From: a virus
Lineage: Duplodnaviria > Heunggongvirae > Uroviricota > Caudoviricetes
DNA length: 13,460 nucleotides
Reading direction: 5' to 3' (one strand)
IMG/VR virus record: IMGVR_UViG_2671180439_000004
This document shows, piece after piece, positions 1-6,000 of the stretch. Positions within the stretch are counted from its first letter, which is position 1; the number at the start of each line of letters is the position of its first letter. The position numbers are program-made.

Positions 1-3000
1 CCAGCTGGCGTTTGAGACGTGCAATCTCGGTAGACATCTCCAGTTCACGTTCAGAAGACGTCTGCTGATTTTGCTGTTTACTGCGCCAGTTGTAGAGTTG
101 TGATTCATACAGGCTGAGTTCACGGGCTGCGGCAGTAACACCGATGCGTTCAGCAAGCTTCAGGGCTTCACTGCGAAATTCAGGCGAATGCTGTTTACGG
201 GGTTTTTTACTGGTTGATACTGTTTTTGTCATGTGAGTCACCTCTGACTGAGAGTTTACTCACTTAGCCGCGTGTCCACTATTGCTGGGTAAGATCAAAC
301 ATGTTAAAAATGTTAGAGAACACTGCACAACGGAAGAGACAACCAAGCAGGCTTTGATACTTCCTTTTTTGGACATCCTAGGCTTTAACGCATATGATCC
401 GCAAAAAGTCAAAGCTGAATATGGTGCGGACTTCCCTGGTGTGAAAGTGGGTGAGCGTGTAGATTATGCTCTATTCTGCCAAGGTGTTCCCGTTATGTTT
501 ATTGAGGCCAAAGGTTGTAAAGAAAAAATGGACAACCATTGTCCTCAATTATCTAGGTATTTTAATTCTACTCCTGAGGTGACAATATCAGCAATTACTA
601 ATGGAATTGAATGGCGCTTTTTTACGGATCTCAATGAAAAAAATATAATGGATTCAACGCCATTTTTACGAATCATGATGGATGACATTAAAGATTCTGA
701 TGCTGAGCAATTATTTAGATTCCGCCATGACAAATTCAAACCAGAGGCCCTAAGAACCCTTGCAGAAGAGAGTGTTTATATTTCTGCATTTGTTAAAGTC
801 GTGAGTACAAGCCTTCGGGAAGTAGATCATGAATTTGTTAGATATGTTGCAGGACGAGCAAATATTGGTCGTCAATTAAATCAAAGATTTATAGAAACAA
901 TAACTCCATTGGTGAGGCAGGCCGTAGAGAGGTCAGTAAGTGAAATGGTTGTTTCTGGTCTTTCATCAAGAACATCTATTCCTGAATTAGAATCCCCTGC
1001 TGATGTAACTGAAAATAATGTAATTGATGAGCGCGCAGATATTGTCGATGCAGAGAACCCCAACATAGTAACAACCTATAATGAAAGAATTTTATTTGAA
1101 AAAATCTGTTCTATTATAGGCCCTGCATACGAACTTCAAGCCAAAGATACAGAGTCCTATTACTCTATTCTTTTCCAAGGAAAAACAAACCGCTGGCTGG
1201 TTCGCTATTATGACAAGAAGAATCGCTCAAACATACAGTTACCAATTGATATCAATGAAATAACCGGTAATGAAATTAAAAGAGCCGGACTTGAACATGA
1301 TAACAATCGTATTTTCATTGAACATCCCGAGGATGTATTAAGGATTTCAGGTTTAATCCTTGATTCTTTACAATATGTACAGAATGATGAGAATTTCAGA
1401 AAGCGTCGTCCATAATCATAAAAACACTAGCTTTATTTCACACAAATCCCGCTTATGCGGGATTTTTTTTGACCGCCGACCAACATTAGGCTAAGCCTAT
1501 TGACATGACATTAGGCATAACCTAACATCAAGTGAGTCTGATGGACTATGTCATCTTGGCGGCACCAGTTTCCCCATTGTTTCTGGTTCGCCCTTTTACA
1601 AAAGACATCAGAGCACCACCGAGTGACGTGCCCTAACACAATCCGCCCGAGCGGATTTGCGGCCGCAGGTGCTCTTCTGTGTTGTGTGGAGAACTAACGT
1701 ACCGCCATTGCAGTGGCGGTCCCCCATCAGCAAGAAATTTTAACCAGCTATTCACCCATTCTCATGGGTTGGGTTGCTGCACCCTAAATTTACGCGTTGC
1801 AGAGCGTCAGATGGAGAACAAAAGATGGCTAAGACAGCAAAACAACTGATTAAACAGGCGTACGAAATAGCCAAAACTATGCCACCAGAACAGGCAGCAA
1901 TCATCAAGGAACTGGCTACCGTCCTCGATGTTTCGAATGTAGCTCTGCGCCAGACGCGCACCGAACGTGACGCCCTTCTTGCAGAGGTCAAATCATGGGC
2001 GAAAGAGTGTGATCGCCTGACCGAGCGACACACCAAGAATCGCACAAATATGCATGTTCTAGAGGCTATGCGCGATTTGAAGGCAATTTGCCCCACCAGC
2101 TTCCGTAACGTGGAGGCTCTCTGATGGCTAAAGACTCAAAGCTGGTATATGGCGCGAGTGGCAAAACGAACGTTTTAGCGTTTGAACCTGAAAAACTGCA
2201 CCTGGTTACCGACAAAACGCACCCGCTTTACGATGAGCGTATCCACCTGCCTATCAGCGAGGCAATGGTGCTGAACATCATGGACCAGGGCGTTCTTGAG
2301 CCGATTATCGTCTGGAAAGACCCGGAAACAGGGCTGTCTTGTGTGGTTGATGGTCGCCAGCGTGTGCGCCATACACTGGAAGCCAATAAGCGTCTGTCAA
2401 AATTGGGCAAAGAACCGTTACTGGTTCCGGGAGTCCCTAAACGTGGCTCTGCCATTCGCATGGCGCAGGCGATGGTAAGTGCTAACGAAATCCGCCAGGC
2501 AGATACGCCGCTAGGCCGAGCAAAGAAAATGGCTGATGCGCTGGAGCGCGGGCACGATGAGGATGATTTAGCGCTGATGTTTGGCGTGAGTGTCCAGACC
2601 GTACGCGCAACTCTGTCACTGCTGGATGCCACCCAAGCTGTTCGCGATGCAGTGGAGTCCGGAACGGTCACTGTTACCCAGGCGCGTCAGTTGGCATCGC
2701 TTAAACCCGAAGAGCAACGGGAGAAGGTCAAGCAGATCGAGACAGCGACCGCCGGCACCACGGGCCATGAAAAAGCTCGGCGTCAGCGTCAGATCCTCGG
2801 TGATGCAAAGCCGCGCCTGAAAACCCGCAAAGAAATTACAAAAGCACTCGAAGATGCCAGTGGCGAATATGCCGAGGCTCTGCGCTGGGTGCTTGGGGAG
2901 GCGCAATGAATTTTGAACCTGAGAATTACAGCAAATACACCCTGCGTCGGCTCGCCGCCCTGTTAGATGTGATCTGCTGGGTGCTGATTGCCGTAGTAAC

Positions 3001-6000
3001 CGTTGGTATCTGCATGTTTATTGAATGGTGGACAGCATGAGCAACGTAACCAAACCAACCAGCAAGGGGAAATTTGATGGGGCAGTTGATTACCTCTGCT
3101 CCGATGAGGCTCGTTTTCTGGTTATGCGGGGCGACTATAGCGAAGCAGATATTATCCAAGCGTCTGTATCCCAAGATGTGATTGATGCTGAATGAGTGGA
3201 TGCCGAAGGGTGTGTTTTTCCGCCCTTCCGGTTACTACTGGAAGCCAGGAGGTACTACCGAGAATCTAGCCCCAGCAAACGCTTCTAAAGCGGAGGTTTG
3301 GTTAGCTTACGAGAAAGTCGTTGAAGGTCGAAAAAAACTACTCACCTTTCAACAATTGTGGAAAAAATTTTTAAATAGTGCTGACTATGCAGACCTTGCC
3401 CCCAGGACACAAAAAGATTACCTGGCACATGAAAAATACTTGTTAGCGGTTTTCGGCGATGCAGAAGCAAAGGCCATTAAACCAGAACACGTCCGACGCT
3501 ACATGGATGCACGTGGTAAAAGAAGCCGTGTTCAGGCTAATCACGAGCATAGTTCAATGTCTCGTGTATACCGCTGGGGTTATCAGCGTGGTTATGTACC
3601 AGGTAATCCGTGTGTTGGTGTCGATAAGTTTCCTAAACCCCAGCGCGACCGCTACATAACTGATGAAGAGTACATAGCTATCTTCACTCATGCGACACCT
3701 GCAGTTAAAGCCGCGATGGAAATTGCGTATCTTTGCGCTGCAAGGGTATCTGATGTTCTTAAAATGAACTGGAATCAGATTCTTGATAAAGGAATTTTCA
3801 TACAGCAAGGTAAAACTGGTATTAAACAGATCAAAGCCTGGACTGAGCGTCTTAGTGCGGCTGTGGATATTTGCAGGGAATGGGGACAGGATGGCCCTGT
3901 TATCAGGACAATGTATGGTGAGCGTTATTCATACAAGGGATTTAATGAAGCATGGAGAAAAGCGAGAAACGCGGCTTCTGAAGAACTTGGTAGGCCACTT
4001 GATTGCACCTTCCATGATCTAAAGGCTAAAGGGATCTCAGACTATGAAGGATCTGGCAGGGATAAGCAAAAATTCAGTGGTCATAAGACAGAATCACAGG
4101 TACTTGTTTACGACAGGAAAGTTAAAATCAGCCCCACGTTGAACAAGAAAATGAGATGATTCTTTGGCGTCGGAGCATGCTTCGGCGCTAGAATTTTTCT
4201 CAGTGGATTTTCTCAATTTTTCTCATCGGGATGCAGGTCACTGAAAGGGAATGCTGTAAGTGTTTGAATAGTGGCGGAGAGAGGGGGATTTGAACCCCCG
4301 GTAGAGTTGCCCCTACTCCGGTTTTCGAGACCGGTCCGTTCAGCCGCTCCGGCATCTCTCCGTTCAGATGGTTGCCATGATGCCAGGAAATTTGGCATTT
4401 TAACAGTCCCTGTCCGTGCAATTTTGTTCAAGTGACGAGTTTGCGAGCAAAACGATGATTAAGTGGCCCTGGAAAGTACAAGAATCAGCACATCAAACTG
4501 CCCTTCCCTGGCAGGAAGCACTATCGATCCCCCTTTTAACGGGTCTGACGGAACAGGAACAAAGCAAATTAGTCACTCTTGCCGAACGTTTTTTACAGCA
4601 AAAGCGGCTTGTTCCTTTACAGGGCTTTGAACTGGATTCATTAAGAAGCTGCCGGATAGCACTTCTATTTTGCCTACCCGTTCTGGAGTTAGGACTGGAA
4701 TGGCTGGATGGTTTTCATGAAGTCTTAATTTATCCTGCGCCATTTGTGGTCGATGATGAATGGGAAGACGATATCGGTCTGGTGCATAACCAACGTATTG
4801 TTCAGTCAGGTCAGAGCTGGCAGCAAGGGCCTATCGTTTTGAACTGGTTGGATATACAAGATTCTTTTGATGCTTCTGGTTTTAACCTGATTATTCATGA
4901 AGTCGCTCATAAGCTGGACACCCGTAACGGCGATCGCGCCAGCGGAGTTCCCTTTATTCCGTTGCGTGAGGTTGCTGGCTGGGAACACGATCTTCATGCT
5001 GCAATGAACAACATTCAGGAAGAAATCGAATTGGTTGGCGAGAATGCGGCGAGCATTGATGCTTATGCTGCCAGTGATCCTGCTGAATGTTTTGCCGTAC
5101 TTTCTGAATATTTCTTTAGCGCCCCAGAACTTTTTGCTCCTCGTTTCCCTTCATTGTGGCAACGTTTCTGCCAATTTTATCAACAAGATCCTTTGCAGAG
5201 ACTGCATCGCACTAATGATACAGACTCGTTTTCGGCGACGAATGTTCATTAATTAACAACTTTGCAGATTAATTAACCAATTGAAATGACTTATGAAATT
5301 TAGTGTTGACAGACAAGGTACCGCTAAGTAATATGCGCCCCGTTCACACGATTCCTCTGTAGTTCAGTCGGTAGAACGGCGGACTGTTAATCCGTATGTC
5401 ACTGGTTCGAGTCCAGTCAGAGGAGCCAAATTCTAAAAATTCGCTTTTTTAGCGCAATGTCACTGACCTTAGTTGAACATTGTTTTTTAACGGATAGCGG
5501 GTTTTTAACATCTTAAGCGCCCTCGACCTTTATGGTTGAGGGCGTTTTGCTATGAACGCCATCACCATTTTCCCCTCGATTATAAAACTTGAGTTATTCA
5601 GTAGTCTCCCCTCTTGCAACTCACACTCAAAACTGCCTAACGAAAAGTTATTAATTTTCAATCATATTGCTATCAGGATTTACATTTTTTCGCTGTGCTA
5701 GAAAGGGCGCATTTATGTTAGCTCGTTCAGGGAAGGTAAGCATGGCTACGAAGAAGAGAAGTGGAGAAGAAATAAATGACCGACAAATATTATGCGGGAT
5801 GGGAATTAAACTACGCCGCTTAACTGCGGGTATCTGCCTGATAACTCAACTTGCGTTCCCTATGGCTGCGGCAGCACAAGGTGTGGTAAACGCCGCAACC
5901 CAACAACCAGTTCCTGCACAATTCGCCATTGCAAATGCCAATACGGTACCCTATACCCTTGGAGCGCTGGAATCGGCCCAAAGCGTTGCCGAACGCTTCG

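Follow-up and report, generated by a model that had tools for sequence, protein, structure and literature searches.

Between a ParB-like gene and the integrase gene int of an Escherichia coli prophage remnant, on the 13,460-nucleotide stretch IMGVR_UViG_2671180439_000004 of the IMG/VR virus collection (this whole stretch is called the window below), lie two very short open reading frames (ORFs), which raise the question of whether frames of this size are genes at all and, if so, what their products might do. A sequence-only reading of the window had proposed that both are translated, that the first encodes a one-helix membrane protein, and that the second encodes an acidic product at the place where an excisionase would normally sit. 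Both ORFs are present at the positions that had been claimed: ORF44, 44 codons at 2906-3040 on the plus strand and with the sequence that had been quoted for it, and ORF52, 52 codons at 3037-3195 on the same strand, stop included. They are not unannotated, as had been assumed, since RefSeq holds both as hypothetical proteins (WP_254899625.1, 44 residues, and WP_152953564.1, 52 residues). We consider it highly probable that ORF44 is a genuine accessory membrane-protein gene, that ORF52 is a stump left by a deletion, and that the element is locked in place without an excisionase (Xis).

Seventeen ORFs of at least 20 codons overlap positions 2700-3400, and neither ORF is thus beyond chance in this sequence alone; the case for ORF44 therefore rests on related loci. 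We compared 82 loci that were retrieved by ORF44 similarity and, because this set is biased towards ORF44, another 80 that were retrieved by similarity of the ParB-like gene. In all 82 loci of the first set ORF44 is intact, counts 44 codons and has an ATGA at either end, while the last codons of ParB include a GGAGG-type site; the ParB/ORF44 junction TGGGGAGGCGCAATGA, or a near variant, is kept across them. In the window, the ribosome-binding site for ORF44, GGGGAGG, is likewise carried in the last codons of the ParB-like gene, and start and stop overlap at 2906-2909 (ParB stop, ORF44 start) and 3037-3040 (ORF44 stop, ORF52 start). These two overlaps agree with the earlier claim; a third one, with int, does not exist, as the ATG of 3192-3195 opens a 25-codon ORF in a different frame. 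Among the ParB-selected loci, ORF44 was found in 48 of 80, always with 44 codons and a 3' ATGA, and these copies represent 28 protein variants with identities down to ~40%. Altogether, the 44-codon length is fixed in ~130 related loci.

The frame itself is also maintained. Both other sense frames contain stops in 32 of 32 unique ORF44 sequences, and the three antisense frames contain them in 13, 31 and 32 of these sequences. Codon position 3 accounts for 22 of the 39 variable sites, and the ratio of nonsynonymous to synonymous polymorphism (pN/pS) is 0.37-0.51 in the ORF44 frame, compared to 0.64-1.8 in the other frames and 0.16-0.24 for ParB. With frame and length kept across diverged homologues and an excess of synonymous changes, ORF44 qualifies as a genuine protein-coding gene. 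That it is real and translationally coupled had been expected from the window, and homologous elements indeed retain both the intact frame and the hydrophobic helix. ORF44 is already catalogued and has no feature outside known kinds: it is a phage micro-protein of PHROG 2936, a phage family with no assigned function, of which it is a full member without any difference (residues 1-44 on profile positions 1-44 of 44, E 2.9e-26, 92 bits), and the identical protein is the one already deposited in RefSeq. The family is narrow. A word-indexed search of 5.8 billion proteins returned 45 ORF44 clusters, nearly all of exactly 44 residues and from Klebsiella, E. coli and Raoultella, and an exhaustive profile search, run against 1.84 billion cluster representatives, gave only 13 matches.

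A conserved nucleotide island at ORF44, which could have represented a boundary sequence, a parS-like site or an RNA element, turned out to be a selection artefact of retrieval by ORF44 similarity. Diversity in the ORF44-retrieved loci is 0.02-0.07 for ORF44 versus 0.13-0.23 for ParB, whereas in the ParB-retrieved loci it is 0.132 for ORF44 versus 0.081 for ParB. The ORF44 region shows no notable palindrome, no excess RNA folding (z = +0.54) and no Rfam match.

ORF52 is acidic, as had been stated (net charge -5, isoelectric point 4.3), but its interpretation as a small protein in the excisionase slot did not hold. It is a pseudogene fragment: a gene of 102 codons of which only the 5' half is left, and thus no small protein in its own right and no excisionase either. 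The coding part, a truncated remnant at 3037-3192 on the plus strand, corresponds to codons 1-52 of this gene and is identical to residues 1-52 of the 102-residue protein in loci L003 and L016; PHROG 28696 aligns to it with only profile positions 1-51 of 102. The 102-residue protein follows ORF44 in phage vB_VIPKPNMC05 and in at least 12 IMG/VR loci, and the full-length gene is found in L003, L016, L021, L023, L049 and others. This PHROG 28696-type family comprises ~70 protein clusters of 96-108 residues across Enterobacterales, with members in Klebsiella, Citrobacter, Enterobacter, Serratia, Pectobacterium, Brenneria, Pantoea and Erwinia. Its best conserved part is the C-terminal half (YYQCWYKVSPIGGQEGYSxWHHPRDTPCRGAYFASVLQWD): ORF52 shares the N-terminal 52 residues with the family, while these most conserved C-terminal 50 residues are missing. 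AlphaFold2 predicts a single alpha/beta domain for the full 102-residue protein, of which the ORF52 stump would lack helix 2 and three of five strands. The finding bears chiefly on annotation, in that the RefSeq entry WP_152953564.1 should be read as a pseudogene fragment.

Two further observations concern this junction of ORF44 and ORF52. A 95-residue in-frame fusion of ORF44 and the ORF52 stump (P0240, …IEWWTA-C-NVTKPTS…) occurs in four metagenomic or Logan contigs and is due either to misassembly or to a small indel where ORF44 and ORF52 overlap in ATGA. An antisense ORF of 82 codons (2926-3174) was rejected as a candidate gene: it is present only where the 102-residue gene family lies downstream, is down to 31 codons in KpF5, and its frame has stops in 13 of the 32 ORF44 variants.

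Where the second half of the 102-codon gene went can be read from the deletion junction at 3191-3192, which was located by the junction sequence and BLAST coordinates. Homology to the 102-residue gene stops at 3192, and homology to int of intact relatives starts at 3191. The left parent reads …GATGCTGAA and continues beyond the breakpoint with GGCGC, the right parent reads …CCTGGTAA and continues with TGAGTGG, within int codon 9, and the window itself reads GATGCTGAATGAGTGG, with a two-base AA microhomology. Relative to L016 the deletion amounts to 2307 bp, and relative to L049 to 2411 bp. In L016, the stretch that is missing here encodes the second half of the 102-residue protein, followed by an Ea22-like product, an HNH endonuclease, three small ORFs, a DUF4224 protein of 75 residues and the first eight codons of int. 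This 75-residue protein matches PHROG 1266, 'excisionase', with E 1.1e-29, and in all intact relatives that were inspected, E. coli prophages at the same tRNA-Ser site among them, its gene immediately precedes int; the gene order of intact relatives at this attachment site is ParB, ORF44, cargo, DUF4224 (PHROG 1266) and a 330-residue Int. ORF52 was therefore rejected as an excisionase, as it has no similarity to any known Xis family and the slot beside int in intact relatives is held by the 75-residue DUF4224 protein. The same junction is found in ~10 of 5,426 complete E. coli genomes and a few metagenomic contigs, which fits a single deletion event that was vertically inherited. Searches of the literature for DUF4224 as an excisionase, for small phage genes of the transmembrane type and for cryptic prophages that are locked returned nothing specific.

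A deletion of ~2.3-2.4 kb by illegitimate recombination joined codon 52 of the 102-codon gene to int codon 9. Lost with it were the Ea22-like and HNH-type cargo, the excisionase with DUF4224 and, from int, its ribosome-binding site, its start and its basic N-terminal tail. The ORF52 stop (TGA, 3193-3195, plus strand) and the apparent overlap with int were created by the deletion junction: the TGA is fortuitous, being formed out of frame by int codons 9-10 (AAT GAG), and is not a native stop.

The tyrosine integrase gene (3185-4159, plus strand) has lost its native ribosome-binding site, its start codon and its first eight codons (MGRKRAPG), and now has new in-frame ATGs at 3185 and 3200. Native int of the relatives begins MGRKRAPGNEWMPKG and is preceded by an AGAGAG ribosome-binding site just after the xis stop. 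The window int would begin either MLNEWMPKG (ATG 3185, the choice of PGAP, with an 11-nucleotide overlap) or MPKG (ATG 3200, 4 nucleotides past the ORF52 stop), and no good ribosome-binding site lies ahead of these starts. The catalytic and core regions of Int align to lambda Int with E ~1e-12, and the Int N-terminus resembles MGRRRSHERRDLPPNLYIRNNGYY of lambda Int, a local match that is not significant alone. In recombination of the lambda type, excision needs Xis, and the N-terminal domain of Int binds arm sites. The relatives have a lambda-type module, with xis immediately upstream of int and an MGRKR...GYY-like N-terminus (again not significant alone), whereas the window has no xis, and its int is without codons 1-8 and without a ribosome-binding site of its own. 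As Xis is gone and Int is clipped and poorly initiated, the element is probably locked in place and no longer able to excise. With an N-terminally clipped integrase and no excisionase partner, the tRNA-Ser/mtfA island would be a fixed remnant and not a mobile prophage.

The general state of the element is that of a decayed prophage. The window matches the mtfA / tRNA-Ser / tRNA-Asn / yeeJ locus of E. coli chromosomes, and its positions 1 to ~4270 are the integrase end of a lambdoid prophage, which is related to temperate phages of Klebsiella and Escherichia, KpF5, P7641 and vB_VIPKPNMC05 among them. The tRNA-Ser gene (4275-4361, minus strand) provides the attachment site at the right end of the remnant. 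In complete genomes with exactly the window's sequence the element is only ~14 kb in size; it contains pseudogenes and an insertion sequence (IS) element between a racR-type repressor and the left operon, and no capsid, terminase or tail-shaft genes were found in it. Given this size, the lack of structural genes, the pseudogenes and the IS insertion, we regard the element as a decayed, cryptic prophage, and the region under study belongs to its early-left accessory region, of which it forms the end nearest the integrase gene; the prophage, a lambdoid one of Klebsiella/E. coli, is now reduced to a ~14 kb remnant. It shares with cryptic, excision-deficient prophage remnants of E. coli the loss of structural genes and of xis, the IS insertions and the retention of an attachment-proximal int, and shows nothing unusual in this respect. 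Both small ORFs are ordinary features for a decaying prophage.

The ORF44 product, in turn, is predicted to be a single-pass membrane protein with one transmembrane helix. Its hydropathy reaches a Kyte-Doolittle maximum of 2.58 in a 19-residue window, over residues ~16-42, and AlphaFold2 places one helix at residues 5-43 (predicted local distance difference test score, pLDDT, 83), a hydrophobic helix of at least 19 residues; the one-helix prediction of the sequence-only reading was thus borne out by both methods. Conservation is seen in the N-terminal, soluble motif MNxxPENYSKYTLRR, at residue 21, which is mostly acidic or polar, and in a C-terminal I-E/K-W-W/V. The N-terminal motif is the most conserved stretch in alignments of close relatives and varies in distant members; the ParB-selected variants keep the hydrophobic character, Y8 and the I-E/K-W motif. 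An invariant intramembrane aspartate, D21, was rejected as a family feature, as it occurs only in close relatives and is replaced by E, Q, N or S in distant members. The basic residues K10, R14 and R15 precede the helix and none follow it, so that, by the positive-inside rule, the protein would adopt an N-in/C-out topology.

These features suggest how ORF44 might be expressed and act. Ribosomes that end the ParB-like gene could re-initiate at the overlapping ATGA, aided by the GGAGG inside the ParB 3' end, and any transcription of the operon would then, through translational coupling, also yield the ORF44 product. The product would be a 44-residue bitopic inner-membrane protein with a cytoplasmic N-terminus, one helix and the C-terminal IEWW at the periplasmic face. 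It may make specific protein contacts at the membrane, and thereby modulate or tether a host or phage partner during operon expression, rather than cause non-specific membrane damage.

The position of ORF44 in the relatives indicates that it is best read as an accessory micro-protein that belongs to the phage 'ea'-type region but is optional there. It marks a mosaic boundary, with at least five unrelated cargo families beginning exactly at its ATGA. An obligate partnership with ParB was rejected, as co-occurrence fails both ways: ORF44 is lacking in 32 of the 80 ParB-selected loci, and in L103 a distant ORF44 homologue follows a 77-residue ORF, without ParB. Where ORF44 is absent after ParB in Serratia, Citrobacter, Enterobacter and Pluralibacter, the ParB gene is coupled directly to other genes, or replication genes come next.

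Several observations weigh against our account of the locus. ORF44 is dispensable to the phage lineage, given its absence after 32 of 80 close ParB relatives, and it is also absent after 80%-identical ParB genes in the four genera just named. Purifying selection on it is only moderate, with pN/pS ~0.5 versus 0.16 for ParB, and the EWW codons of its C-terminus (GAATGGTGG) double as the ribosome-binding region of the downstream gene, so that conservation may partly act on nucleotides. The action through specific membrane contacts is something we infer. The int ORF, finally, is still intact, and reinitiation at ATG 3185 or 3200 after ORF52 could provide some Int.

Small single-pass membrane proteins of bacteria and phages include regulators such as AcrZ and MgtS as well as toxins such as Hok, TisB and the lambda-type Kil, and ORF44 resembles all of these in size, single helix and interface aromatics, while no sequence relationship was detected. 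It is conceivable, though unlikely, that ORF44 is a small membrane-disrupting toxin of the Kil, holin or type I kind, which would cause depolarisation or growth arrest upon expression of the left operon. Its single hydrophobic helix with aromatic ends would suit such a function, as would its match to a holin PHROG, which is weak (E 0.0085) and reflects composition, and the IS between the repressor/promoter region and the operon in every sister genome examined could mean selection against harmful expression. These insertions could equally target other genes, however, or nothing, and ORF44 has no homology to known toxin families in Pfam, NCBIfam or PADLOC. Among toxin, holin and defence families none scored above threshold, the only sub-cut-off matches being DUF6693 and the said holin PHROG, both at composition level. 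In contrast to a type I toxin gene, ORF44 is not a stand-alone cassette with a dedicated promoter or an antisense RNA arrangement but is tied into an operon by translational coupling; no minus-strand promoter-like site was found in 2800-3300, and homology to the toxins of type I toxin-antitoxin systems (Hok, TisB, Ldr, Ibs, ShoB etc.) is lacking, with no Pfam, NCBIfam, PADLOC or Rfam match. The soluble N-terminal motif, most conserved in close relatives though variable in distant ones, moreover points to a specific partner. Our searches thus yielded no evidence for ORF44 as a toxin, to which, along with small membrane regulators, the sequence-only reading had likened it.

Such a partner could be taken further: ORF44 might be a dedicated, lineage-restricted phage effector, whose conserved cytoplasmic PENYSKY motif and acidic residue within the membrane would bind one particular inner-membrane protein of the host. 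We consider this distinctly unlikely; if true, candidate partners would be a protease, a transporter, a divisome protein or a defence component, and ORF44 would represent a new class of small phage-encoded membrane modulators.

ORF44 might, alternatively, have no function as a protein and serve as a translated spacer that hands ribosomes from ParB to downstream cargo, or as a shared boundary for module exchange. The start of cargo from at least five unrelated families exactly at its ATGA, the formation of the downstream ribosome-binding region by its last codons, and its optional nature, with relatives lacking ORF44 coupling cargo directly to ParB, would agree with such a role. A spacer would hardly be expected, however, to keep exactly 44 codons throughout ~40-100% identity, to retain hydrophobicity, Y8 and I-E/K-W, or to show a pN/pS below 1 only in the ORF44 frame, and the nucleotide conservation island is gone once loci are chosen independently of ORF44; we judge this explanation very improbable.

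An ORF52 that functions as a small acidic protein, whether as an excisionase (or recombination directionality factor) of atypical kind or as a neo-functional leader that brings ribosomes to the clipped int, can be all but dismissed: it does lie directly upstream of int and is ATGA-coupled to ORF44, its stop 4 nucleotides before ATG 3200 and 8 nucleotides after ATG 3185 makes termination-reinitiation conceivable, and it occurs in identical form in ~10 complete E. coli genomes and 51 contigs, but it is half of a single-domain 102-residue protein whose most conserved half is gone, it resembles no excisionase family, whereas the real one (DUF4224/PHROG 1266) has been identified and is deleted here, and the identity among carriers fits a single recent event with clonal inheritance in a decaying remnant.

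The reading of ORF44 as an accessory membrane-protein gene thus adds one more well-supported conserved, translationally coupled phage micro-protein, which may be a reasonable, non-urgent candidate for small-protein screens.

The ParB-like gene upstream of ORF44 (2124-2909, plus strand) encodes 261 residues with an HTH_ParB domain (Pfam PF17762, E 4.6e-11; PHROG 1033). Genes of 80-100% identity are found in very different phage modules (L089, L093-L100, L103). They lie next to int in Klebsiella and E. coli prophages, and in Pluralibacter they are followed by the O/P replication genes. In phages BUCT708 and BUCT709, which were deposited as Stenotrophomonas phages and whose ParB is nearly identical to that of the window, the gene belongs to a DnaB-helicase module and is the second gene downstream of DnaB. 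In some relatives, including several ParB-selected loci, the gene coupled to ORF44 or ParB encodes a 358-residue DGQHR-domain protein (L090, 3132-4208) or an MT-A70 methyltransferase; the slot after ORF44/ParB therefore often holds DNA-modification or defence-type cargo. The PADLOC defence-system libraries gave no match for ORF44, ParB, orf100, the HSDR_N protein or the 102-residue protein.

Further upstream, positions 1444-1465 form a terminator-like hairpin of canonical type with a T-run, followed at 1500-1528 by a sigma-70-like promoter (10/12, TTGACA-17-TAACAT), although the promoter count is not above chance. Between this promoter and orf100 (1825-2124) there are ~300 nucleotides of GC-rich untranslated sequence with hairpins, and the 1444-1825 region could be an independent transcription unit or a leader for orf100-ParB-ORF44. 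Positions 1-297 of the window are the end of an IS3-type insertion sequence, with the start of orfA on the minus strand, which abuts the HSDR_N-domain gene (282/301-1415). Sister genomes carry IS3, IS1 or ISKpn26 at this place, between the racR-like repressor and the left operon, and the recurrent position could mean that this is a hot spot of insertion or that the operon has been silenced repeatedly. At the other side of the tRNA genes, yeeJ, which encodes an inverse-autotransporter adhesin, is split into two ORFs (5667-8165 and 8214-12818) and, in the genomes that match the window, RefSeq annotates it as a pseudogene that contains an internal stop.

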